Assembly (NCBI GenBank): GCA_964459325.1
Contig: CAYWKU010000007.1
Location: forward strand, 83,422 to 147,421
DNA from: an uncultured bacterium
GTDB lineage: Bacteria; RBG-13-61-14; CAYWKU01
Reading direction: 5' to 3'
DNA length: 64,000 bases
Part shown: one piece after another, positions 1 to 12,210 of the stretch
Layout: each line of letters starts with the position of its first letter
How positions within the stretch are numbered: the first letter of the stretch is position 1
Notes under the pieces: generated by a model
The model's database searches: none
Seen by the model: the letters and a program-made list of their open reading frames with translations, nothing else
Told to the model about the DNA's origin: nothing
Made by a program: the position numbers and the translations under genes

Positions 1-308
1 CGGATAACGCCGGCGAATGGCCCCTATGCGTTTCTCGCCGGGCTCGTTGGAAGGAGCCGGGCGCCAGCTTCTTTCAACTTTGAATTCATCCGCTGTCGGC
101 TCGGCCCCCGCCTTTGCGGTGAGTCGGAAGAAGCCGGACACGCTCCGGATGGCACGGCGGCGGATAACACGCGGAATGCCCCGATTAATCAGGATTCGCT
201 CGAAAGCCGCCTTCTGAGCCCGCTTCTGCACCCCTTGAAACTGGTTGACTATACGGTCCAAAATCACCTTAAACCCTTTTGCAGGGAAGGTTACTTGCGC
301 CCGGTAAA

Positions 309-420
309 AATGTCCAGAGGGGTTGTAAGGCGAAAACCCTCAATTGAGGGTGTGAAATAAGTTGACTTAAAATCTTGTCCTGAAATCCCGCAATGTCCAG
401 TGGGGTTGTAAGAGGAAACT
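309..420. repeat. Two imperfect 28-bp direct repeats upstream of the GMC oxidoreductase operon
   Basis: AATGTCCAGAGGGGTTGTAAGGCGAAAAC (309-336) and AATGTCCAGTGGGGTTGTAAGAGGAAAC (393-420), about 84 bp apart, just upstream of the start at 480. Confidence 0.55.
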
Positions 421-479
421 TCTGCGTTTATAGTCGTCCTGCACACTTTGAACCGTCCTTTTTGCGAAACGGAGGGAAA

Positions 480-995
480 ATGTTCTGGACAGGATTGATT
501 GTCGGAATAGTCGGCTCCTGGCTGGTCAGGGAGCTCTTTCTCGGGTATATCGCGCCTCCCACCGGCTTCAAGCGCCTGGGCAGGAAAGGCTATGCGGTAG
601 TCCGTGCGATAGGCGAAGCGTTGCTACCGGAAGGGGGGGACATTCCTTATTCTGCGGAGCAGGCCGATGTACCTCAGTTCGTGGACAACTACCTCGACGG
701 CGTGCCCACCCTCACCCGCCGGCTGATACACATGCTCTTCTTTCTTATGGAACACGCCACCTACATATTCGCCTTCACCACCCGCCGCCTTTCCGAGATG
801 GACGTGGACGCCCGGATACGCTACCTCGAGGGATGGGAAAACAGCCGCCTTTACGCGCGCAGGTTGGCCTTTACCAGCCTCCGGGCCATATACGGCATGG
901 CCTACCTGGCCCACCCGGATGTCGAGAAGGCCATGGGGATAGATATAAACCGCAGGTGCCGAGAAGCGCTTGTCGTTGAAAGGAAGCGCGCATGA
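480..995 (+). CDS. Small membrane-anchored protein, gluconate 2-dehydrogenase subunit 3-like; probable partner subunit of the downstream GMC oxidoreductase
   Basis: ORF 393..995; preferred ATG at 480 preceded by GGAGGG; N-terminal hydrophobic helix (FWTGLIVGIVGSWLV); stop overlaps the downstream start (ATGA at 992-995). Family assignment is from overall resemblance only. Confidence 0.5.
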   Translation: MFWTGLIVGIVGSWLVRELFLGYIAPPTGFKRLGRKGYAVVRAIGEALLPEGGDIPYSAEQADVPQFVDNYLDGVPTLTRRLIHMLFFLMEHATYIFAFTTRRLSEMDVDARIRYLEGWENSRLYARRLAFTSLRAIYGMAYLAHPDVEKAMGIDINRRCREALVVERKRA

Positions 996-2536
996 ATACC
1001 GAATCGCCCAATCCCCACGAGCACGTAAAAAGGTTCCGTGATTATGACCGGGATATGAAAGACAGTTGCGATTTCCTTATCGTCGGCTCCGGTCCCGCCG
1101 GCTCGGTGGCGGTTAAAGAGCTTTCGGAAGCGGGATACGACGTGGTGTTGCTGGAGGAAGGTCATCCCGTGGGGCCGGAGGATTTCGTCAGGGAAGGCTC
1201 CCGCTCCATGATGAGGCTGATGAAGGAAGCCGGCGTGCGCTCCACCCTGGGAAACATCGCCATGCCCACTATGCAGGCGATTTGCCTGGGAGGCGGTTCC
1301 CTCATCAACAGCGCCATTTGCATACGGGCGCCCGAGTTCGTGTTCGAAAGATGGCGCAAAGAATGCGGCATCGAATGGGCGAGCCGGGCCGAGCTGGACC
1401 CTCACTACGATAAAATCGCGGAATACTGGGGAGTTCAGCCCACCCCGGAAGACGTGCAGGGCCGCCGCAATCTCCTGTTCAAAGAAGCATGCGACAACCT
1501 GGGCATCGAAAGCCACCCCAACGACCGGAACGTGCAGGGGTGCAAGGCTTGCGCCGAATGCTTCACCGGTTGCCCCACCCGCGCCAAAAAGAGCACCGAC
1601 GTGGTGTTCATACCCGACGCCATACGCAACGGCGCCCGCGTCTATGCCAACATGCGGGCGGAAAAGCTGATAATAGAAGGTAACCGCGTGGCCGGAATAC
1701 ATGCCCGCGCGGCGGATAACTGGACAAAGCGCACCGGCCACTCGCTCGAAGTGCGTGCCAAATGCACCATCCTCGCCGCCGGGGTCGTTGGAACTCCCAC
1801 GTTGTTGCAGAAAAACGGCAATGCCGCCAACTCCTCCGGTTGGGTGGGCAAAAACCTCGTATTCCATCCCGGCGGGGCTATTATGGGAATTTTCGACGAG
1901 GAGGTCAACCCGTGGGACGGGGCGACTCAGGGGTACTCCTCCATCGAGTACCTCGAGCAGGGCTTCAAGCTGGAATCGTTGTGGGCGCCGCCGGCGGTGC
2001 TGGCCGTCAGGTTTCCCGACTTCGGCTATGACTTCAAATCCCACATAGCCAAGTACAAGCACATGGCGCCCTGGGTGGCGGTGATAAGCGGGCAGTCGCA
2101 GGGCCAGGTGCGCGCCCGAAAGAGAGGCTGGGACCCGCTGCTCAAATATAACCAGAGCCAGGAGGATGCTAATAGAATCAGGGAAGGCCTGTCCAAGGTG
2201 GCGCAGCTTTTCGAAGCCGCCGGGGCTCATTCGATGCTGCCCGGAGTGCACGGGCTGCCCACCGTCATGAAAACCGAAGGCGCTCCGAAAAAGATACTGG
2301 AAACAAAGTTGAAGCCGGCGGACATGGTCAGCGCCGCCAGCCACGTCTTCGGCACTACCAAAATGGGCGCCGACCCATCGAACAGCGTGGTGGACCCTTC
2401 GGGTAAAACTCACGACCTCGACGACCTGTACATAGTGGACACCGGCATCATGCCCATCTGCACCAGCGTTAACCCCATGTTCACCATCATGGCCATAAGC
2501 GATAAGATATGCCGGGGACTCAGGGAAAGATATTAA
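992..2536 (+). CDS. GMC-family FAD-dependent oxidoreductase (choline dehydrogenase-like)
   Basis: N-terminal Rossmann FAD motif DFLIVGSGPAGSVAVKELSEAGYDVVLLEEG; C-terminal GMC signature region (HVFGTTKMGADPSNSVVDPSGKTHDLDDLYIVDTGIMP); 514 aa. Confidence 0.85.
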   Translation: MNTESPNPHEHVKRFRDYDRDMKDSCDFLIVGSGPAGSVAVKELSEAGYDVVLLEEGHPVGPEDFVREGSRSMMRLMKEAGVRSTLGNIAMPTMQAICLGGGSLINSAICIRAPEFVFERWRKECGIEWASRAELDPHYDKIAEYWGVQPTPEDVQGRRNLLFKEACDNLGIESHPNDRNVQGCKACAECFTGCPTRAKKSTDVVFIPDAIRNGARVYANMRAEKLIIEGNRVAGIHARAADNWTKRTGHSLEVRAKCTILAAGVVGTPTLLQKNGNAANSSGWVGKNLVFHPGGAIMGIFDEEVNPWDGATQGYSSIEYLEQGFKLESLWAPPAVLAVRFPDFGYDFKSHIAKYKHMAPWVAVISGQSQGQVRARKRGWDPLLKYNQSQEDANRIREGLSKVAQLFEAAGAHSMLPGVHGLPTVMKTEGAPKKILETKLKPADMVSAASHVFGTTKMGADPSNSVVDPSGKTHDLDDLYIVDTGIMPICTSVNPMFTIMAISDKICRGLRERY

Positions 2537-2545
2537 ACTGTTAGT

Positions 2546-2619
2546 GGGAGCGACCTCCCGGCCTCGCCCGTAAGGCTACAGCCGGGGTCGCGACCTTCTT
2601 AATCGAGACCACAGGTCTC
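2546..2619. repeat. Dispersed hairpin repeat family, locus 1 (intergenic, after the GMC oxidoreductase gene)
   Basis: GGGAG-cgac-CTCCC hairpin, CCCGTAAGGCTACAGCCGGGGTCGCGACC (reverse complement of 21681-21707), GAGACC-aca-GGTCTC palindrome. Confidence 0.6.
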
Positions 2620-2854
2620 TCCAACTTTATAAGAGGGGCAACCACTGAACCGGGTTCATCAACGAGTTCGCCTCTACCCTTGCCCAAAAAGTTAAATTGT
2701 TTTAGTATTTTATACTTCGCGATAAATCAGGGTTATACTGTTGAGAATCGAAAAGAGGTGGATTTCCGGAAGACAAGGGGCTTAAGCCCCTTGTCCGGCG
2801 CACTCAAAAACTGTGTTGAATCAAAAACTATAATTAAAACAAGGAGTGGCAATA

Positions 2855-4894
2855 ATGGAATTGGCGCAAAGAATTCTGGTTTTCCTCATGTTGGTGGGCA
2901 GTGTGGTTTACTTTTTCTATCGTCTCTGGAAGCTGGAACTCAGGCTTGTTCTGCAGGGAGACAAGGAAAAGCGAACCGACAATATCGGAACGAGGATAAT
3001 ATCCCTGATTCGTGACGTTATTCTCCAGCGCAAGCTTTTCTTCAGACCCTACTCGCTGTCCGGCACCCTTCACGCTTTCGTCTTCTGGGGATTTCTGATT
3101 ATCGGCATACAAACACTTAACTTTCTTATCGAAAGCGTCGCCGGTTTCAACGTGGTGGCTCACACGCTCCCGCAGCTCAACGTCCTCTTCGACATAATGA
3201 CCGCGCTGGTTATCGTCTCGGTAATTTACTTCATCTACAACCGGCTGGTTAACAAGCCGCTGCGGCTGGAGCTGAGCAGCGACGCCCTGATAATCCTCGT
3301 CTTCATCGGCCTTTTGATGGTTACCGACGTCCTCATGGACGGCGCCGCTTACGCCTTGGGAACCACGGAACACGCCTGGACGACCGACCTGGCTTTCTTC
3401 GGAGGCGCAATCCGCGGCCTGCTTTCCGGGGTCGGCGATACCGGCAATTACGTGATATGGGCGGTAAACAAATGGGTGCACCTGGGCATTTTCTTGAGCT
3501 TCCTTATCTATCTTCCTTTCTCCAAGCACGGCCACCTCATGTTCGCGCCGTTCAACGGCTTCTTCCAGGAGCTTACCCCCAAGGGCCGGCTCCGCCCCAT
3601 CGAAAACATGGAAGAGATAATGGAATCGGACAACCCCACCTTCGGCAAGCACAAAATCGAAGAGTTCTCCTGGAAGCAGCTCCTGGACCTGTTTAGTTGC
3701 TCCGAATGCGGCCGCTGCAGCGACAATTGCCCCGCCCAGATAACCGGCAAGAAGCTGAGCCCCAAGTACCTGATGATAGACATGAAGCACCACCTCCAGG
3801 AGGTGGGTTACGTGGCCGACGGAAGCGGCGGCTCGGACGAAGAGGGCCTGACCAACTCCGACGGCAGCCGGCGCAAGGACCTGATTACCGAAGTCGTGGA
3901 CACCGACGTCATCTGGGCCTGCACAACATGCCGCGCGTGCCAGGAGTTCTGCCCGGTGCTCAACGAGCACATCATGGACATCGTAGACATGCGCCGCTAC
4001 AAGGTGCTCATGGAAGGCGACTTCCCCGCCGAAGCCCAGACGGCCCTGCGAAACATGGAAAACAACTCCAACCCGTGGGGCGTCGGATACAGCGAGCGGG
4101 CCAACTGGGGCCAGGACCTCGACATCCCCATCATGGGCGAGCTGGAAAACCCGCAGGAGGTGGAGTACCTGTTCTTCGCAGGCTGCGCCGCATCGTTCGA
4201 CGACGCCAACAAGAAAATCGCCCGGGCGGTGGTGAAACTGCTCAAGCGCGCGGGCGTCAGTTTCGCATACCTGGGCGTCGAGGAGCAGTGCTGCTTCGAA
4301 ACCGCGCGGCGTATCGGGAACGAGTACCTGTTCCAGGAAATGGCCAAGGCCAACATCGAGCTGTTCCAGAGCTACGGTGTGAAGAAGATAATCACCGCCT
4401 GCCCGCACGGTTATAACACCCTCAAGAACGAATATCCCCAGTTCGGCGGAAACTTCGAAGTATACCACCACACCGAAATACTGGACGACCTTATCAGGAA
4501 GGGGAAACTCAAACCCACCGAGCCGGTCAACGAGACCGTCACCATCCACGACTCCTGCTACCTGGGCCGTCACAACGACGTCTACGAGCAGCCGCGCAAT
4601 ATCCTGAAATCCATCCCCGGCTTGAAGCTGGTGGAAATGGACCGCAATCACCGGCGAAGCCTCTGCTGCGGCGCGGGCGGCGGGCGCATGTGGATGGAGG
4701 AGCACGAGGGGGTCAGGATTAACAATGTGCGTACCGAAGCCGCCCTGAACACCGGCGCATCGTGCGTGGCCACCGCGTGCCCCTACTGCGTGGCAATGTT
4801 CGACGAGGGGATAAAGAACTTCGAGAAGGAAGAAACATTCAAGCTCAACGACGTAGCGGAACTGCTGGAAAAAAGCCTCAAGCCCGAAGAATAA
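2855..4894 (+). CDS. Membrane-bound Fe-S oxidoreductase: polytopic N-terminal membrane domain fused to an HdrD/GlpC/DsrK-like domain with two ferredoxin-type 4Fe-4S motifs and two CCG-type cysteine-rich motifs
   Basis: ATG at 2855 with AAGGAG 8 nt upstream (ORF track begins at GTG 2846). Several hydrophobic helices in the first ~230 aa; CSECGRCSDNCP and CTTCRACQEFCP motifs; cysteine-rich motifs EEQCCFETARR and LCCGAGGG...ACPYC. Confidence 0.8.
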   Translation: MELAQRILVFLMLVGSVVYFFYRLWKLELRLVLQGDKEKRTDNIGTRIISLIRDVILQRKLFFRPYSLSGTLHAFVFWGFLIIGIQTLNFLIESVAGFNVVAHTLPQLNVLFDIMTALVIVSVIYFIYNRLVNKPLRLELSSDALIILVFIGLLMVTDVLMDGAAYALGTTEHAWTTDLAFFGGAIRGLLSGVGDTGNYVIWAVNKWVHLGIFLSFLIYLPFSKHGHLMFAPFNGFFQELTPKGRLRPIENMEEIMESDNPTFGKHKIEEFSWKQLLDLFSCSECGRCSDNCPAQITGKKLSPKYLMIDMKHHLQEVGYVADGSGGSDEEGLTNSDGSRRKDLITEVVDTDVIWACTTCRACQEFCPVLNEHIMDIVDMRRYKVLMEGDFPAEAQTALRNMENNSNPWGVGYSERANWGQDLDIPIMGELENPQEVEYLFFAGCAASFDDANKKIARAVVKLLKRAGVSFAYLGVEEQCCFETARRIGNEYLFQEMAKANIELFQSYGVKKIITACPHGYNTLKNEYPQFGGNFEVYHHTEILDDLIRKGKLKPTEPVNETVTIHDSCYLGRHNDVYEQPRNILKSIPGLKLVEMDRNHRRSLCCGAGGGRMWMEEHEGVRINNVRTEAALNTGASCVATACPYCVAMFDEGIKNFEKEETFKLNDVAELLEKSLKPEE

Positions 4895-4921
4895 TCCTTA
4901 AATTACAGCCGATTGAATCAA

Positions 4922-4951
4922 GGCCCGGTTCCCAATGAGCCGGGCTTTTTT
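4922..4951 (+). terminator. Rho-independent terminator candidate after the Fe-S oxidoreductase gene
   Basis: GGCCCGG-ttcccaatga-CCGGGC hairpin followed directly by TTTTTT, about 30 nt past the stop at 4894. Confidence 0.6.
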
Positions 4952-4960
4952 ACATGTGCG

Positions 4961-5088
4961 CCCGGCAGGGGCATGCCCCCGGACTTACTTCCGGGGTTTC
5001 CATAATGGTAGGCCCGACACTCCTGTCGGGCACACTCAAAGGCCACCGTGGAATGGGCGGCAAGAGTGCCGCCCCTACCGTGCCCGGG
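4961..5088. repeat. Dispersed hairpin repeat family, locus 2 (between the Fe-S oxidoreductase and acyl-CoA dehydrogenase genes)
   Basis: GGTAGGCCCGACACTCCTGTCGGG (5003-5031) and GGCAAGAGTGCCGCCCCTACC (5057-5082) are opposite-orientation copies of the unit seen at 21765-21826; GGGGCATGCCCC palindrome at ~4968. Confidence 0.6.
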
Positions 5089-5247
5089 AGTACGGAGTGC
5101 GGACAACCCCATCGTTATATGTCGGCCTGTCTGTAAGGACAACAAGAAACCTTGCCTTTCCCTTTCCCCCGCATCCCCTTGCGCCGCCCGTGCGATAAGC
5201 CTATACTGGACTTTCCTGAAAAATTAAATTTTCGATGGAGAGGGAAA

Positions 5248-6387
5248 ATGGAGTTTAGCGACGAGCTTAAGATGGTTCGCGACGAAACCCGCAAGTTCGT
5301 TGACCGGGAGATTATACCGAGGGAGATGGAAATCGAGGAGGCGGACGCGGTGCCGCCGGACATCGTAAGCAAGCTGAGGGAGCTTGGCTACTTCGGCATC
5401 AAAACCCCGCCCGAATACGGCGGCCTGGGGCTGGGACTGACCGGATACTGCGTGGTGCAGGAACAGCTCGGGCGAACTCACCCCGCCGTAAACCTCATCA
5501 TCAGCGGCAACAACTCAATAGGCGCAATGGGTATACTAAACGACGGCTCCGACGAGCAGAAGCGCCGCTACCTGCCGAAACTGGCCTCCGGCGAATGGAT
5601 AGCCGCCCTGGCGCTTACCGAACCCGGCGCCGGGAGCGACGCCGCCTCCATCAAAACAAGAGCCGAAAAGAAGGGCGACAAGTGGGTAATCAACGGCGCC
5701 AAGCACTTCATCACCCGCGCGGACATCGCCGACGTGTTCACGGTAATGGCGGTTACCGACAAGGAGAAAGGCCCGAAGGGCGGCATCACCGCGTTTGTGG
5801 TGGAAAAGGGAACGCCGGGCTTCGGCATCTCCAAGCCGCAACACAGCATGGGGTCGGATACGGTGCGCCAGTGCGAAGTTTATTTCGACGATTGCGAAGT
5901 TCCCGAAGAAAATGTTATCGGCGAAGTGGGGTTCGGGTTTCGCGTGGTGATGAAAGTGCTGGAGGATGGCCGCATCGGCCAGGCCGCGCGGGCGCTGGGC
6001 GCCATGAGAAGGCTGCTCGATTTGAGCACCGACTGGGCGAAGCAGAGGGTGCAGTTCGGCAAACCAATCTCCGAACGGCAGGCCATCCAGTGGATGCTGG
6101 CCGACATTGCCCGTGACATCTACGCTTCCGAGTGCATGGTCTACGACGCCGCCGGGCGAAAGGACGAAGGCGAGAGACTCCCGAAGCAGGCGGCGATAGC
6201 GAAGCTGTTCGCCAGCGAAGCCGCATTTCGCGCGGCCGACAACGCTTTGCAGATTCACGGCGGCACCGGCTACATGAAGGATTCGCCGGTGGAGTTTTTC
6301 TTCCGGGAGCTGAGGCTGCTCAGGATTATCGAGGGCACCAGCGAAATACAGCGGATGGTCATATCCCGGGAAGTTCTGAAAGAGTAA
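5248..6387 (+). CDS. Acyl-CoA dehydrogenase
   Basis: ATG at 5248 after a GGAGAGGG purine-rich stretch; typical ACAD sequence throughout (ALALTEPGAGSDAASIKTRAEKKGDKWVINGAKHFITRA, QIHGGTGYMKDSPVEFFFRELRLLRIIEGTSEIQRMVISREVL). Confidence 0.9.
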   Translation: MEFSDELKMVRDETRKFVDREIIPREMEIEEADAVPPDIVSKLRELGYFGIKTPPEYGGLGLGLTGYCVVQEQLGRTHPAVNLIISGNNSIGAMGILNDGSDEQKRRYLPKLASGEWIAALALTEPGAGSDAASIKTRAEKKGDKWVINGAKHFITRADIADVFTVMAVTDKEKGPKGGITAFVVEKGTPGFGISKPQHSMGSDTVRQCEVYFDDCEVPEENVIGEVGFGFRVVMKVLEDGRIGQAARALGAMRRLLDLSTDWAKQRVQFGKPISERQAIQWMLADIARDIYASECMVYDAAGRKDEGERLPKQAAIAKLFASEAAFRAADNALQIHGGTGYMKDSPVEFFFRELRLLRIIEGTSEIQRMVISREVLKE

Positions 6388-6444
6388 ATCGTTTGAGTCA
6401 CGGTATTCCCGCATGGGCGTAGCCATGCCCGGGGAAATGGGGGC

Positions 6445-8949
6445 TTACCGCAGGGAGTAGGGCGGAGCTTCGGGGCCGCCGTAGGCGCCCATGTCGTTGC
6501 GCGAGCCGTCGGGGTCGTCGTACTCGGCCGCCGGGTCGCCCGCATTTATGCAGGGTGAGTCGGGCGCGAGGCGGTAATCTTCGGTCAAATCGACGGCTCC
6601 CGCCCCCCAGTTTTCCACCGTCATGCGGGATGTGGTGGCGGCGGGCAACGCCGGGCTGAACTCCACCGTGTCCCCTCCGGTGATAGCAGTAACGGTTCGG
6701 GCCGTGCCGTCTCCCTCCAGCTCGATAACGTCACCCACCTTATAAAGCGAGGCGTCGTTGACTTTTATAGTGTTATCGGCGCCATCGGCCACAGTTCTAT
6801 CCCAGAAAATGGGAGCGTTGACAAACAACGGTGGCGCATCGATATTGCCTGACCCCCCATATCCCCCGGTGATGTCGCTATAAGCTACCTTGATGTCGCC
6901 GGTTCCCTCGATTTCCGCGGCGGCCGATGAACAGCCTTCCCAAAGGATGGAATTGCGCACCGACACTTCGGAATTCTCGGCGTATACGGCGTTTCCCCTG
7001 TTTTCGGCGAGGTTGCCGTTGAAGGTGCAGTTGGTGACCTCGACTTCACCTTTTATATCCGCCAGAGCCGCGCCTTCCCGCGATACGCCGTTTCCGGCGA
7101 AAACGCTGTTTTCGATTATCGTTCCGCTTCTGTAGCCGTAAATTGCCGAGCCGGATTGATAGGCGGAATTGCCAAGAAAATAACAATTGGATATTTTCAT
7201 TATACCCTTTTCATTGTAAACGGCCCCGCCCAAGCTGGTCCAGGATTGAGCGGATGCGCGGTTATTGAAGAAAGCGCAGTTGGCGACTTCCAGGCGCCTG
7301 CCTCTTACGTTCAACAATCCCGCGCCCTTATTTGCATAACTATAAGATATCCTTGCGTCGCCGTTTTTCACAATGAATCCGTCCAGCCGGGCATTTGAGG
7401 CTCCGTCGACGACGTGAAAGCTCCTGCCTTCCCCGTCGAGGACAGAAGGATACTCGAATGGATTTCCCCTTTCCGAAAGCTTCGTTTCGTTGCCTTCGAA
7501 TCCGCCGTAAACGTACACACCCTTATTCATCGAGACTACCGGCTTATTTTTCACGGGAGTGTAAACTCCCTCGGCAACCCAGATCTCATCGCCGGTAATT
7601 GCGGCGTCCGTCGCAAGCTGTATGCGGGTGAAGGCGTTATTCCAGGATTCGCCCGAGCCGTCTCCGGCCGCGTCATCGTCCACGTACCACACCTTCGAGC
7701 AATCGGTGGAGGATACGAATTCATCCCACCGGGTGTCTTCGGCGAATCGATGCCGGTTATAGTCTTCCATGTAAAAATCCGCCGGTGGAAAGTATATTGA
7801 AAGCCCGTTGGCGTCGGGGATGAAGCTTCTGTTATATAAAACCGCCTCGTCGATAGCCCGCATGGTGCTTTCGGCGCCGGTAAGCATTTGCGGGGGAATA
7901 TCCGAAGAAAGTAGCAGCGAGGCGAAGTGATACAAATCCATCACCGCGACGCTGCCGAAGCGCTGCACGCTGCGCCAGGCATTGCATATTTCGCCCGGAT
8001 AGTCGGTCTTTGCGAGCGATAATTGCCCGGCCATCGAATCCGCGCCCTCGGCCACCCGGTCGACTGCGGCCATATCCAGGGTGGATATCGTTAATATGTC
8101 GGGGGATTTATGATACTCGACGTAAGTATCGGAGATAATTCTCCCCAGCTCGGCCGTGCTCATCAGCGGGTCCAGCGCCAGCGGCCTGAGCCAGTTTTCG
8201 TAAGCCAGTCCCGGCACTTTGGGCAGGGATATGTAACCCTTGGCCTGCTTGGCCACCATGTATTCGGTGTAATCCTTCATGAAGTATACGTTCGCGGCCT
8301 GTTGTTGGGCGCATGCGCTGAATGCCACCAAATCCAGTGAATCCAGGCCGGTGCGGGTCAGGGCGCCATTAATCGCCGCTTCGGTCTCCTGAAAGTTGAG
8401 TATGTCGTAATCGCTGGTTTCGTCCTGCGAAGTGCCCCCCCAACCGAAACCGTGGTCCCAGATTACAAGGAGGTATCTGTTGGCGGGATAACTTATTACC
8501 GACCGGGCGATGAAGTCCTCCAGGGTTTGAGCCTCGGCCATATTAAGCTCACCCGCCTCCCGGAGCAGGGTGGAGTTGATGGTGTCCGGGAAGCCGTCCG
8601 GCTCGACGTAATAAAGCCTGGTTCCGGCCCAGTCGCCATTGGAGGCGTCGTAATCGTCTATCCGGTCGAAAAGGACAATTATGTTGATGTTGGAATCGCT
8701 ACCGACCCTTTCCATGAGGTTGAAGGCGTCTATTGCAAATGGCTCCAGGTCGTTGTCGCCGTCCATGTAGACCATCACGGTCCATTCCTTTTTGTCCGGG
8801 CTTTCGGCCTGATACGGGGTGACACGTTCGCCGTCGGAGGTATTACTCCATAAATTACCCACGGAATCGGAGCCGCACCCGAGGAAAATGAGGGTTTGAA
8901 AAATAAAAAAGAGGCCAAAGGCCCCTTTGATTCTGCCGCAAACGGCCAT
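6445..8949 (-). CDS. Secreted lipoprotein: clostripain-family (peptidase C11-like) N-terminal domain fused to a right-handed beta-helix repeat region
   Basis: Signal peptide with lipobox-like LIFLGC; WTVMVYMDGDNDLE and VIWDHGFGWGG motifs typical of C11/clostripain-like proteins; C-terminal repeated N-x-[ST]/G-N units (NCAFFNNRASA, NCYFLGNSAYQ, NCTFNGNLAENRGNAVYAENS) typical of parallel beta-helix. Confidence 0.6.
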   Translation of the reverse strand: MAVCGRIKGAFGLFFIFQTLIFLGCGSDSVGNLWSNTSDGERVTPYQAESPDKKEWTVMVYMDGDNDLEPFAIDAFNLMERVGSDSNINIIVLFDRIDDYDASNGDWAGTRLYYVEPDGFPDTINSTLLREAGELNMAEAQTLEDFIARSVISYPANRYLLVIWDHGFGWGGTSQDETSDYDILNFQETEAAINGALTRTGLDSLDLVAFSACAQQQAANVYFMKDYTEYMVAKQAKGYISLPKVPGLAYENWLRPLALDPLMSTAELGRIISDTYVEYHKSPDILTISTLDMAAVDRVAEGADSMAGQLSLAKTDYPGEICNAWRSVQRFGSVAVMDLYHFASLLLSSDIPPQMLTGAESTMRAIDEAVLYNRSFIPDANGLSIYFPPADFYMEDYNRHRFAEDTRWDEFVSSTDCSKVWYVDDDAAGDGSGESWNNAFTRIQLATDAAITGDEIWVAEGVYTPVKNKPVVSMNKGVYVYGGFEGNETKLSERGNPFEYPSVLDGEGRSFHVVDGASNARLDGFIVKNGDARISYSYANKGAGLLNVRGRRLEVANCAFFNNRASAQSWTSLGGAVYNEKGIMKISNCYFLGNSAYQSGSAIYGYRSGTIIENSVFAGNGVSREGAALADIKGEVEVTNCTFNGNLAENRGNAVYAENSEVSVRNSILWEGCSSAAAEIEGTGDIKVAYSDITGGYGGSGNIDAPPLFVNAPIFWDRTVADGADNTIKVNDASLYKVGDVIELEGDGTARTVTAITGGDTVEFSPALPAATTSRMTVENWGAGAVDLTEDYRLAPDSPCINAGDPAAEYDDPDGSRNDMGAYGGPEAPPYSLR

Positions 8950-9123
8950 ATTCCTTGCCTACAACCTCCCCACTCTTTAGGCTAATCATTTTATCCTGTA
9001 TTTTCAATGAAATTCCACAAAGTTGAGGAATATTCTACAGTCTTACTACAGCTTGTGTTGACATCCATCGGCCATCGATTACCCTAACCGCGACTTAACA
9101 AATCCGGCAGGGAGAGATTCATA

Positions 9124-10410
9124 ATGGAGTTGGAAAAAGCCATAGAGTTTCCTAAGGATTTCCTCTGGGGCGCCGCCGCCTGCGCTCACCAGGTGGAAGG
9201 CGACAACTTTTACAACGACTGGTGGGAATGGGAGCAGCAACCCGACAGCATCAAAAACGGCGACCGCTCCGGCAAGGCCTGCAACCACTACGAGCTGTTT
9301 GAAACCGACTTCCGCCTGCTCAAAGAAATGGGCGCCAACGCCCACCGGCTGGGCATCGAATGGAGCCGCATCTACCCTGAAGTGGACCGTCTCGACCCCA
9401 AAGCCGTCGACCATTACAAGAAGGTGCTCGAGACAGCGCGGGAAGCGGGCCTGGAGGTATTCGCCACCGCTCACCACTTCACAAGCCCCGCCTGGTTCGC
9501 GAAAAAGAACGGTTTCCTCGTCGAAAAAAACCTCGATTACTTCAAAAGGTACATCGAGCTTATCGCGAAGGAGCTGTCGCCTTACGTCACATACTGGAAC
9601 ACCATCAACGAGCCGGCGGTCTACGCCGTAATGGGCTGGATGGCGGGCGAATTCCCGCCCGGCCACCAGGACGTGGGCGACGCGGTGGACGTGCTCCGAA
9701 ACATCATACTCGCTCACGCAGCCGCATACCAGGGCCTCAAGGAATACTCCCCCAACGACGTAAAGGTGGGCATCGTCAAAAACATACCCCATTTCATACC
9801 CATGGACCCCGACGACCGGATGGACGTGGAAATGGCCGCCAGCCAGGACAAGTTCTTCAACGAATACCACCTGCACGGCATCGAGACCGGCGTGCTGCAA
9901 CTGGGCAAGGAAGAGGAGTTCCCCGAGCTGAAAGGCTCCACCGACTTCTTCGGACTGAACTACTACATGAAAATGATATGCGACAACGACCGCCCCATGG
10001 GCCCGATGACCGCACTGCCCGACGATAAAAAGACCCAGATGGGATGGGCGGTGCACCCGGACGGACTTTACGAGAGCATCATGAGGCTCAAAAAATACGG
10101 CCTGCCCATCTACATCACCGAAAACGGCATCGCCACCGACGACGACGCTTGGAGGGTCGAGTACATTACGCAGCATTTGCAGAAAACAAGGCAGGCCATG
10201 GACGACGGCGCGGACGTGAGGGGCTACTTCTACTGGTCGAACCTGGACAATTTCGAGTGGGCACAAGGATGGGAGCCGCGCTTCGGGCTTATCTCCTTCG
10301 ACCCCGAAACCTTCGAGCGCAAAATCAAGCCTTCCGGCCAATTCTACGGCGAATGCGCTCAAGCGGGCGCGGTAACGCCGGAACTGGTGGAAAAGTACTC
10401 CGAGGGTTAA
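9124..10410 (+). CDS. Glycoside hydrolase family 1 beta-glucosidase
   Basis: GH1 N-terminal signature FLWGAAACAHQVEGD, acid/base NEP motif (TYWNTINEP), nucleophile ITENG motif; 428 aa. Confidence 0.9.
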   Translation: MELEKAIEFPKDFLWGAAACAHQVEGDNFYNDWWEWEQQPDSIKNGDRSGKACNHYELFETDFRLLKEMGANAHRLGIEWSRIYPEVDRLDPKAVDHYKKVLETAREAGLEVFATAHHFTSPAWFAKKNGFLVEKNLDYFKRYIELIAKELSPYVTYWNTINEPAVYAVMGWMAGEFPPGHQDVGDAVDVLRNIILAHAAAYQGLKEYSPNDVKVGIVKNIPHFIPMDPDDRMDVEMAASQDKFFNEYHLHGIETGVLQLGKEEEFPELKGSTDFFGLNYYMKMICDNDRPMGPMTALPDDKKTQMGWAVHPDGLYESIMRLKKYGLPIYITENGIATDDDAWRVEYITQHLQKTRQAMDDGADVRGYFYWSNLDNFEWAQGWEPRFGLISFDPETFERKIKPSGQFYGECAQAGAVTPELVEKYSEG

Positions 10411-10536
10411 GAAAAAAGCCCGGACAAGCCGGTCATCGGTCATTTCTCCCTCCGGATAGTATCTGCGAGTCAGGACATTATCCATTTAACCGTAACAGAT
10501 TACAACAGTATACCTCGCCCTGCTCGAAAGATACCG

Positions 10537-10862
10537 GGTACCCCACCTTGCACGCAGTGCGAGGTGGGTAGCGAAGCTACAGGGAAATGTGGTATGAAGG
10601 ATTGCGGATTATCAATCGAGCAGTCTGCTATTTAATGAAGAGGGGAAAGGCGCCGGGGTATCGGTTTCGAAGCCGTCAATATTCCCTGCCCGTCCGGGCC
10701 CACCTGGAACCTTCGGGTCAAGGTGGGGTACCCGGTATCCCCGGGTTAAAACCCGGGGCTTAAAGATAAATGTGAAACTCCCCGGCTTAAAAGCCGGGGT
10801 TTCCGAGGGGTGAGCAAAATTGATAGCCCACACAACTTGCTTGTGTGGGTGAGCGAAGCTCA
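10537..10862. repeat. Cluster of stable stem-loops in a convergent intergenic spacer, including two copies of a hairpin-plus-GCGAAGC mini-hairpin unit and three GC-stem/TTAAAA-loop hairpins
   Basis: Unit 1 at 10537-10580 (ccaccttgcacgcagtgcgaggtgg + gtagcGAAgctac); unit 2 at 10827-10862 (cccacacaaCTTGCttgtgtggg + tgagcGAAgctca); between them ccccgggTTAAAAcccgggg and ccccggcTTAAAAgccgggg. Confidence 0.6.
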
Positions 10863-11040
10863 CGGGAGACAATTCCCTCCTGCGCCTTCGGCGCCGGGCT
10901 TACGCTTACGCTTTAAGCCCGGCTACCCGCTATCGAGCACACCATAATGTGTTCAAGCCATGACAAATTTTATACTTTGCGCCTTTGCGTGATGCTTCAA
11001 ATGACTTGGGTTGGGGTTGCATTTTGCTACGGTTTGGGGG

Positions 11041-11139
11041 TGTAGAATTCGAGGGTCGATTTTCTACAACATTTTCTACAGAATTGTAGAATATTCTACA
11101 ACGTTGTAGGATATTCTACAGGTGACAATTTTCGTCACC
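11041..11139. promoter_or_regulatory. Array of TTCTACA-containing palindromes (operator- or iteron-like), including an 18-bp perfect palindrome
   Basis: At least seven TTCTACA/TGTAGAA half-sites within ~80 bp; perfect palindrome TTGTAGAATATTCTACAA (11084-11101), near-palindrome TTGTAGGATATTCTACAG (11104-11121), inverted repeat GGTGACaattttcGTCACC (11121-11139). A related GGAATATTCTACAG copy lies at 9026-9039 upstream of the GH1 gene. Confidence 0.5.
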
Positions 11140-11193
11140 CGAAGCGTCGAACACCGGCGTGTATTCCACGAGCAGGGGATGAAAAAGAGGGGC

Positions 11194-12210
11194 TCAGACG
11201 GTCACCCTGCCCGCCTTTTCGGCCCGGTACCATTCTATAAGTGAAGGCAGGCCCTCCTTGATAGTCGGGTACCTCAACGGACCCGGCATGCGCGATTTCA
11301 TCCGCACGTTGGAGTAGACCAGGTCGGAGTGGGCGATGTCCAGCATCCCCCCTATGCCGAAGGGGAATCCCAGAAGGTCGCTGACCGCGTCCACCGGCAC
11401 AGCCAGCGTTTTCAAGAGAAACCGGGGCATGGAGCGGATTTTGAGCACTATCCCCAACTGCTGCGCGATGCGCTCCAGAAAATTCTTCACCGTTATCCGG
11501 TTGTCGTCCACCGCGTGGATTACCTTGGCGTGAGCCTTGGGGTCGTAACCGGCGCAAACCAGCAGGCGCGCCAGGTCTTCTGCGTGAACCAGCGGTATGA
11601 TTTTATCTCCCTTGCCCACGAACGGAAGGCCCAGCTTGCCGTACTTGTCCATGAAATCTATCAAGCCCTTGAGGTGGACGCTGTGAGGGCCGTATACCAG
11701 CGCGGGGCGGATGATGGCGTAGTCCAGGCCGTCTTCCAGGTGAGCCGCCCGCATTATCTGCTCGGACTTGTACTTGTAGGTGGTGTAGAGGTCGTGGAGC
11801 TTTTTAGACGGTGGAGTTTCTTCGGTGGCGGGGAATTCCGAAGGTATACCCGCCACGGATATGCTGGAGAGCAGCACCAGGCGCTTTCTGTGTTGATGCA
11901 ATGCCCTTCCGACCAGTCGCCGCACCAGCTCCATGTTGTGTTTAATGGCCCACTTGGTAGTGTTGGGCAACTCTCCCGCGTGGTAGATGACATCCACGCC
12001 GGCACAGGCTTCCTCCACCCTGACCAGGTCCCGAAGGTCGCCGTGAAATATTTCGACGCCCCGCTTTTTCCACGCGGCGGCCTTTTCGGGAGTGCGCACG
12101 AAAGCCCTTACCGGCACTTCGGCCCTGATAAGCTGCTCCACCAGGTGGGAGCCGATGAAACCGGTGGCGCCGGTTACGAGTACGGGATTTTTCTGCTGCT
12201 CGGATTCCAT
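11194..12210 (-). CDS. NAD(P)-dependent epimerase/dehydratase family protein (SDR superfamily)
   Basis: N-terminal Rossmann motif VLVTGATGFIGSHLVEQL; 338 aa typical of extended SDRs. Confidence 0.8.
   Translation of the reverse strand: MESEQQKNPVLVTGATGFIGSHLVEQLIRAEVPVRAFVRTPEKAAAWKKRGVEIFHGDLRDLVRVEEACAGVDVIYHAGELPNTTKWAIKHNMELVRRLVGRALHQHRKRLVLLSSISVAGIPSEFPATEETPPSKKLHDLYTTYKYKSEQIMRAAHLEDGLDYAIIRPALVYGPHSVHLKGLIDFMDKYGKLGLPFVGKGDKIIPLVHAEDLARLLVCAGYDPKAHAKVIHAVDDNRITVKNFLERIAQQLGIVLKIRSMPRFLLKTLAVPVDAVSDLLGFPFGIGGMLDIAHSDLVYSNVRMKSRMPGPLRYPTIKEGLPSLIEWYRAEKAGRVTV

Follow-up and report, generated by a model that had tools for sequence, protein, structure and literature searches.

The question raised by this locus is whether a membrane-bound Fe-S protein encoded next to an acyl-CoA dehydrogenase (ACAD) passes electrons to the quinone pool, and how much the neighboring gene says about such a role. 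The DNA is a 64,000 nt stretch (the window, from whose first letter all positions are counted) of an uncultured bacterium (GTDB lineage Bacteria; RBG-13-61-14; CAYWKU01), corresponding to positions 83,422 to 147,421 of the forward strand of contig CAYWKU010000007.1 (GenBank assembly GCA_964459325.1). As judged from its sequence and predicted structure, the Fe-S gene (the EMO gene, Table 1) very probably encodes an intact, ordinary ETF:(methyl)menaquinone oxidoreductase of the EMO/EtfD/FadF family, ETF being the electron-transfer flavoprotein.

Domain architecture, fold and cofactor ligands

The EMO gene lies within an open reading frame (ORF) of 2846–4894 on the forward strand, and the ATG at 2855 is the likely start because AAGGAG is found 8 nt upstream and the resulting protein of 679 aa is equal in length to a 92%-identical homolog (P0001). 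Read by eye, the translation begins with a hydrophobic third and contains two CxxCxxCxxxCP and two CCG motifs. Pfam searches placed 4Fe-4S dicluster families at residues 280–371 (E = 6e-9 to 4e-7) and CCG (PF02754, E = 4.3e-35) in two stretches, the best at residues 565–653; these matches, like those of the ACAD described below, have E-values far past chance level. Together with the helices of an AlphaFold2 model, they bear out the arrangement given in a preliminary description of this DNA, that of a polytopic membrane domain joined to two 4Fe-4S and two CCG motifs. That description had also called for profile searches with CCG and NarI models, and only the former gave a hit. PF02665 (NarI), the family to which the membrane domain of Syntrophus aciditrophicus EMO (SaEMO) is assigned (bioRxiv 10.64898/2026.08.18.745454), had no match in the protein at E <= 0.01, and several homologs of 42–45% identity carry precomputed PF02665 matches.

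Among solved structures, the EtfD of Mycobacterium smegmatis (9ojn_A) was matched by residues 5–675 of the window protein (8–745 of EtfD), membrane domain included, at E = 2.8e-135 (phmmer), and the next matches were HdrB chains, at E = 1e-10 and over the CCG part only. The AlphaFold2 model, built with 50 homologs (mean pLDDT 91.2, pTM 0.89), has five long hydrophobic helices at residues 2–33, 67–96, 108–133, 142–168 and 195–222, with short connecting helices after transmembrane (TM) helices I and IV, and five TM helices with such connecting helices are the topology of both solved family members (bioRxiv 10.64898/2026.08.18.745454). Foldseek also returned 9ojn first (E = 2e-43, query-normalized TM-score 0.89, 38% identity over 728 columns), and its later matches, LutA and HdrB, were limited to the CCG domain. 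The predicted cytoplasmic loops (34–66, 134–141 and 223–262) hold 8, 2 and 4 lysine and arginine residues, against 0 and 1 in the outward loops, a pattern consistent with a model in which the N-terminus is outside and the Fe-S domain cytoplasmic. More than 4,000 proteins match the Fe-S protein, and those listed are near full length, mostly 42–48% identical, and mostly without a name or labeled '(Fe-S)-binding protein'. Databases list the window protein itself only as '(Fe-S)-binding protein' or 'Fe-S oxidoreductase'. Among the matches listed in genome and metagenome scans there was one species genome with a 75% identical relative, the rest being mostly 35–48% identical.

To place the cofactors, ligand identities were taken from PMC13083937 (EtfD) and bioRxiv 10.64898/2026.08.18.745454 (SaEMO), with EtfD numbering rebuilt from a HMMER alignment and SaEMO compared through its published residue numbering, and 201 family members were aligned. 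All of the known ligands are kept (Table 1). The preliminary description had hinged on heme-binding histidines in the membrane helices, and the three putative ones, H73, H209 and H227, are all present. They are invariant in 201 of 201 sequences, as are F80, the eight cubane cysteines, H518 and four of the five cysteines of the proximal non-cubane cluster, and the three histidines are also invariant in a separate alignment of 50 homologs. Substitutions at F216, R130, R287 and C645 are limited to one to three of the 201 sequences each. For SaEMO, residues E22, H109 and E187 have been proposed as proton donors or Ca ligand (bioRxiv 10.64898/2026.08.18.745454); no conserved column of this type was seen across the family in the 50-homolog alignment.

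The two non-cubane sites are interleaved, as H518 lies within the first CCG half-domain, yet is part of the proximal site. The distal site is in the state CCCCHG (C516-P-H518-G519), which is common to 70 of the 201 family members and is also that of a protein encoded directly after etfB-etfA (locus L008). In SaEMO, the corresponding H534/G535 pair goes with an extra sulfide and a [4Fe:5S] cluster (bioRxiv 10.64898/2026.08.18.745454). By its predicted ligands, the distal site of the window protein is of this Syntrophus type, not of the mycobacterial linear-[3Fe-4S] type. Taken with the EtfD match, the fold and the ligands, this CPHG motif upholds the earlier proposal that the protein resembles the membrane Fe-S oxidoreductases that in syntrophs connect ACAD and ETF to quinone.

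The distal site is variable across the family, with at least seven ligand states in the 201-sequence alignment. A switch between CPHC and CPHG (window codons 516–519, nt 4400–4411) occurs even inside the clade of 70–92% identity, where the window protein and P0001 have Gly and P0002–P0007 have Cys, and a rough neighbor-joining tree of the 201 members gave at least about 12 such changes. It would be a switch between [4Fe:4S]-type and [4Fe:5S]-type distal sites, a small data point for research on non-cubane Fe-S clusters.

Table 1. Features of the EMO locus and putative cofactor ligands (Ms, M. smegmatis EtfD; Sa, SaEMO).
Feature	Position (nt of the window, or residue)	Strand	Details
EMO/EtfD-family gene	2855–4894	+	679 aa + stop; single-polypeptide membrane heme b / Fe-S oxidoreductase
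Shine-Dalgarno-like AAGGAG	2841–2846	+	8 nt before ATG at 2855 (sequence read)
NarI-like five-helix membrane domain	2855–3562	+	aa 1–236; AlphaFold2 helices, residue mapping to EtfD/SaEMO
Ferredoxin-type domain, two cubane [4Fe-4S] clusters	3680–3967	+	Pfam Fer4_9/Fer4_10/Fer4_8
First CCG half-domain, distal non-cubane site FeS4/D1	4166–4435	+	Cys444, Cys479, Cys480, Cys516, Gly519
Second CCG half-domain, proximal non-cubane [4Fe-4S] site FeS3/D2	4547–4813	+	Cys568/604/605/642/645 + His518
Proximal heme b, putative ligands	H73 (nt 3071), H227 (nt 3533)	+	Ms H78/H241; Sa H87/H251
Distal heme, putative ligand	H209 (nt 3479)	+	Ms H223; Sa H233, on TM V
Phe pair at modeled menaquinone	F80, F216		Ms F85/F230
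Heme propionate contacts	R130, R287		Ms R137/R306
Cubane clusters	C282/285/288/366 and C292/356/359/362		Ms D4 and D3
Proximal non-cubane cluster	C568/604/605/642/645 + H518		Ms D2
Distal non-cubane site	C444, C479, C480, C516, Gly519		H518-G519 = Sa H534-G535
Intrinsic-terminator-like hairpin	4920–4951	+	26 nt after EMO stop; 12-bp stem, 5-nt loop, six-T run 4946–4951
ACAD gene	5248–6387	+	379 aa + stop; short/medium-chain (butyryl-CoA dehydrogenase-like) type
Small-subunit gene	477–995	+	~171 aa; N-terminal hydrophobic helix, weak Gluconate_2-dh3 match
GMC oxidoreductase gene	992–2536	+	Ferredoxin-like CKACAECFTGCP motif (CxxCxxCxxxCP) at aa 184–195; overlaps small-subunit gene

Electron donor and gene neighborhood

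Several observations weigh against the assignment of the window protein to a role in ETF oxidation. Its identity to family members outside its own clade is 36–49%, that clade has no studied member, and no curated NCBIfam model reached its cut-off (the best, TfrB, scored 170 bits against 385). As the preliminary description had remarked, no etfAB genes are seen in the window: a tblastn search of the 64 kb with the deltaproteobacterial EtfB/EtfA pair of L008 gave one noise match (E = 4.4), and Pfam scans of 54 window ORFs detected no ETF families. There is also no synteny, from close relatives or from the ACAD side, that ties the EMO gene to beta-oxidation. The lack of nearby etfAB, which had been thought to bear on the proposal, is not evidence against an ETF function, since many family members are unlinked to etfBA and so is the genetically proven etfD of Mycobacterium tuberculosis (rv0338c, with etfBA at rv3028c/rv3029c; PMC8593149), and it does not refute the ETF reading.

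Gene context across the family was surveyed at the loci listed by the genome and metagenome scans, mostly those of relatives at 35–48% identity. ETF and/or ACAD genes are found in 29 of the 84 loci with at least 3 kb on each side, and 11 of 171 loci have etfA upstream at a distance below 1 kb. The order is etfB-etfA-EMO at L008 and etfB-etfA-EMO-ACAD at L158; an ACAD pair lies 2.2–4.0 kb downstream in 13 Brevibacillus loci and one Thermoactinomyces locus, and loci from Limnocylindria have an ACAD-etfBA group 3.2–5.5 kb downstream. The function of the family has genetic and biochemical proof from M. tuberculosis (PMC8593149), M. smegmatis (PMC13083937) and S. aciditrophicus (PMC8805022, bioRxiv 10.64898/2026.08.18.745454). 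Homology and this family-wide context point to ETF as the electron donor of the window protein; how many hemes it has, which quinone it serves and which way the electrons flow are likewise inferred.

In the pathway so proposed, flavin dehydrogenases such as the neighboring ACAD would reduce ETF, and reduced ETF would dock on the cytoplasmic CCG (non-cubane-cluster) domain. Single electrons would enter at the distal non-cubane cluster (C444/C479/C480/C516), where Gly519 replaces the fifth cysteine, and would then pass to the proximal non-cubane cluster (C568/C604/C605/C642/C645/H518), the two cubane [4Fe-4S] clusters, the proximal heme b (H73/H227) and probably one or more distal hemes at H209, with membrane menaquinone as the final acceptor. 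Where the host is anaerobic and its quinone is of low potential, the proton-motive force could drive this wire (a reverse redox loop), or the wire could run in reverse in enoyl-CoA respiration, as has been described for the chain of S. aciditrophicus (PMC8805022; bioRxiv 10.64898/2026.08.18.745454). For annotation, this means that a protein without a specific database name can be assigned with confidence to a family that links beta-oxidation to the membrane quinone pool, and it would imply that ETF and menaquinone serve the organism in the oxidation (or respiration) of acyl-CoA or enoyl-CoA.

The ACAD gene had been described as following directly. It is indeed the next gene and on the same strand, but 353 nt and a terminator-like hairpin separate the EMO stop from the ACAD start. 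The protein is matched by PF02771, PF02770 and PF00441 (E = 5e-30 to 4e-50), its closest solved relatives are 5ol2_C, 5lnx_A and 4l1f_A (E = 1e-96 to 1e-92), and Glu362, in an EGT motif, is at the position of the catalytic base of the ACAD family. No substrate-specific NCBIfam model scored above its cut-off for the ACAD. A database protein (P0121) is 100% identical to it and also 379 aa long, and GGAGAGGG is found at 5237–5244, upstream of its ATG. The hairpin at 4920–4951 folds at -21.8 kcal/mol (z = -3.0); a consensus scan for sigma-70 sites and terminators returned sites no more often than in shuffled sequence and did not list this hairpin, and an Rfam search of 1–12000 for leaders and riboswitches gave no match at E <= 0.1.

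The window and its 92% relative (L174) are similar in DNA sequence from 8 to 4950, through the hairpin, and no further. At that locus (P0242, which is in the 90%-identity cluster of the window protein) the EMO gene is followed by a convergent Band_7/zinc-ribbon gene. Others of the five close relatives (70–92% identity) have B12-radical SAM genes (P0003), a convergent RNase Y gene (P0002), an exosortase gene (P0004), or small convergent genes and then sucCD (P0007) downstream, so that each has a different neighbor and none has an ACAD next to EMO. Seen from the other side, an 80% identical ACAD ortholog lies between DsbD_TM and PilZ genes, with the EMO ortholog of the same sample on a different contig, and a 76% ortholog is in a beta-oxidation cluster without an EMO gene. 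A 76% ACAD homolog carries a Thermodesulfobacteriota name, and judged by that name the poorly sampled lineage of the window is probably of this group. An EMO-ACAD operon was rejected, given the absence of conserved synteny from either side, the terminator, and the synteny breakpoint at 4950.

With a terminator and a breakpoint between the two genes and differing neighbors in close relatives, the adjacency is therefore taken to be a lineage-specific juxtaposition, and the EMO gene, as read from the sequence, stands alone with its own putative ribosome-binding site and terminator, the ACAD being a recent neighbor. The idea that adjacency marks a unit was accordingly not borne out; the ACAD is compatible with the proposed function and carries little weight as evidence for it. 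A looser association can still be imagined, in which the two genes form a functional unit for a particular acyl-CoA substrate, co-regulated though maybe not co-transcribed, like fadF-acdA in Bacillus. The shared strand and immediate succession would suit it, as would the ACADs near other family members (the Brevibacillus pairs, and the ACAD 369 nt downstream at L158) and the association of Bacillus subtilis FadF with beta-oxidation (cited in PMC13083937). It is nevertheless unlikely, given the hairpin and spacer past the EMO stop, the different gene beyond position 4950 in the 92% relative, and the two ACAD orthologs at 80% and 76% identity that reside apart from any EMO gene. On the upstream side, the small-subunit and GMC genes (Table 1) raise the alternative that the EMO-like protein is the quinone-reducing partner of a GMC/small-subunit dehydrogenase, replacing the multiheme cytochrome c subunit of related three-subunit dehydrogenases and receiving electrons directly, with no ETF involved. 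The GMC protein has as its best solved relatives the catalytic subunit of Burkholderia FAD-glucose dehydrogenase (6a2u_B, 8hdd_A), with the Cys-rich segment aligned; there is no adjacent cytochrome c gene, the three genes share one strand and are kept together in the 92% relatives, and the small subunit has a basic stretch after its hydrophobic helix and no twin-arginine motif, features compatible with the cytoplasmic face. However, the DNA identity of the relatives with the trio is only about 85%, so that the gene order is not independent evidence, and 318 nt separate the GMC and EMO genes. EMO relatives at 70–77% identity have no GMC gene nearby, the 66% GMC ortholog and its small subunit are followed by LPG_synthase_TM and peptidase M19 genes instead of EMO, and only 4 of about 170 family loci have a GMC gene, all from the 92% lineage. 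Conserved synteny between EMO and the GMC pair was rejected on these grounds, being confined to the 92% lineage, with none at 66–77% identity, and the partnership is judged highly unlikely. A related proposal, that a free-standing EMO acts as a general quinone reductase of the cytoplasmic face and takes electrons directly from the adjacent GMC/Fe-S flavoprotein, besides or instead of ETF, is given a very slim chance; if true, such transfer would be the first non-ETF donor for the EMO family.

The remaining alternative concerns the protein itself, since its domain set equals HdrE plus HdrD. It could be a fused HdrDE-like thiol/disulfide reductase, with menaquinol reducing a heterodisulfide, protein disulfide or trisulfide at the non-cubane clusters, like DsrMK, HmcEF, TmcBC and HdrDE. 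The HdrB chains as next-best solved sequence matches, partial NCBIfam matches to TfrB, TmcB, DsrK and HmcF, weak similarity of the membrane domain to the QmoC and TmcC membrane subunits, and the Thermodesulfobacteriota name of the ACAD homolog all lean in that direction. Yet the scores stay far below the cut-offs (54 of 400 bits for DsrK, 64 of 735 for TmcB, 46 of 750 for HmcF and 21 of 300 for QmoC), and the EtfD match spans the whole protein and surpasses that to HdrB by more than 120 orders of magnitude. His518 is found where EMO blocks the substrate (coenzyme M) site of Hdr, Gly519 replaces Cys81 of Methanothermococcus thermolithotrophicus HdrB, the CCG domain has nine cysteines against ten in HdrDE/HdrBC, and the Pfam scans of 54 window ORFs revealed no dsr, hmc, tmc or qmo genes. 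Hdr-like modules of sulfate reducers and TfrB were rejected on the NCBIfam scores, an Hdr/Dsr-type disulfide reductase also on the His518/Gly519 pair at the catalytic positions, and a reductase of this kind is scarcely credible. An ETF:(methyl)menaquinone oxidoreductase is the preferred assignment.

Other features of the window

Upstream of the EMO gene, the GMC and small-subunit genes are conserved at 66% identity along with one divergent gene for about 485 aa (L176), and the exact CxxCxxCxxxCP spacing occurs in 9 of 122 GMC homologs. A 27 nt direct repeat (309–335 and 392–418; 89% identity, 83 nt spacing) precedes and overlaps the longest possible start of the small-subunit gene. About 60 nt upstream of the EMO start, at 2773–2796, there is a perfect 10-bp hairpin, GACAAGGGGCttaaGCCCCTTGTC, without a T-run, which may be a palindrome bound by a regulator or else a processing site. 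From the terminator to the ACAD start, the 296 nt of 4952–5247 have no similarity to the 92% relative and no Rfam match, and contain GC-rich hairpins such as GCCCGACActccTGTCGGGC and GGGCGGCAagagTGCCGCCC; the segment 4990–5090 folds at -51.3 kcal/mol (z = -3.6).

Convergent to the ACAD gene is one for an 834-aa clostripain-family (Peptidase_C11) protein with a Chlamydia PMP-type repeat (6445–8949, reverse strand). Beyond it, a palindrome of about 29 nt around TGTAGAATATTCTACA occurs three times, at 9012–9040 and 11073–11121, and the copies flank the region of an unannotated 468-aa ORF (9079–10485, reverse strand) and the intergenic stretch before an epimerase-like gene (11194–12210, reverse strand). 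By their sequence these palindromes look like operator sites. A perfect 21-nt inverted repeat, GATACCGGGTACCCCACCTTG, with its arms 168 nt apart (10530–10550 and 10719–10739), lies just upstream of the same ORF. Pfam scans of 54 ORFs across the window also detected sigma-54 regulation, lipopolysaccharide export, and a large glycosyltransferase and B12-radical-SAM region. The latter extends from about 29900 to 62000, mostly on the reverse strand. Genes for glycosyltransferases (GT2, GT4), PMT_2-type transferases and LPG_synthase_TM proteins form a long series there, joined by five genes for B12-binding radical SAM proteins and a single radical SAM/SPASM gene, and the GC content falls to 45–49% at 54–62 kb. 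B12-radical SAM genes also adjoin the EMO gene in close relatives (L001).

Comparison with known systems

The EMO of S. aciditrophicus shares with the window protein a single polypeptide of about 700 aa, an N-terminus predicted to be outside, five TM helices, the histidine pair of the proximal heme, the histidine of the distal heme, two cubane and two non-cubane sites, and the His-Gly (CPHG) at the distal site where Hdr has Cys. SaEMO has a stacked pair of distal hemes b and a displaced TM helix II (bioRxiv 10.64898/2026.08.18.745454). The window gene stands alone, whereas some family members, such as that of L008, are directly after etfBA.

Mycobacterial EtfD (Rv0338c, and 9ojn of M. smegmatis) is the full-length homolog described above, with identical ligands for heme, cubane and proximal non-cubane clusters and an identical Phe pair at the modeled menaquinone, and its gene, too, lies apart from etfBA. 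It differs at the distal site, where Thr539 and Cys584 (CCTCHC) go with a linear [3Fe-4S] cluster, as against Cys480 and Gly519 in the window protein. EtfD also ends in a disordered tail of about 265 residues with no counterpart in the window protein, and it has a single heme in its structure and an aerobic host.

FadF (YwjF) of B. subtilis and DgcB of Pseudomonas aeruginosa are of the same family and architecture and are tied to ETF-dependent catabolism, and genes of the FadF type are found near ACAD genes, as in the Brevibacillus loci. These proteins are without the distal non-cubane cysteines (PMC13083937), four of which the window protein keeps; in the 201-sequence alignment, the distal state is SNSDHA or ANSDHA in 15 Bacilli sequences. 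HdrDE of methanogens and the DsrMK, HmcEF and TmcBC modules have the same NarI-like cytochrome b, two-cubane domain and CCG domains, and the HdrDE-type fold overlays EMO/EtfD (PMC13083937; bioRxiv 10.64898/2026.08.18.745454). They are two-subunit enzymes with catalysis at the non-cubane clusters, in contrast to the window protein, which is fused and in which His518 and Gly519 occupy the positions of substrate and ligand.

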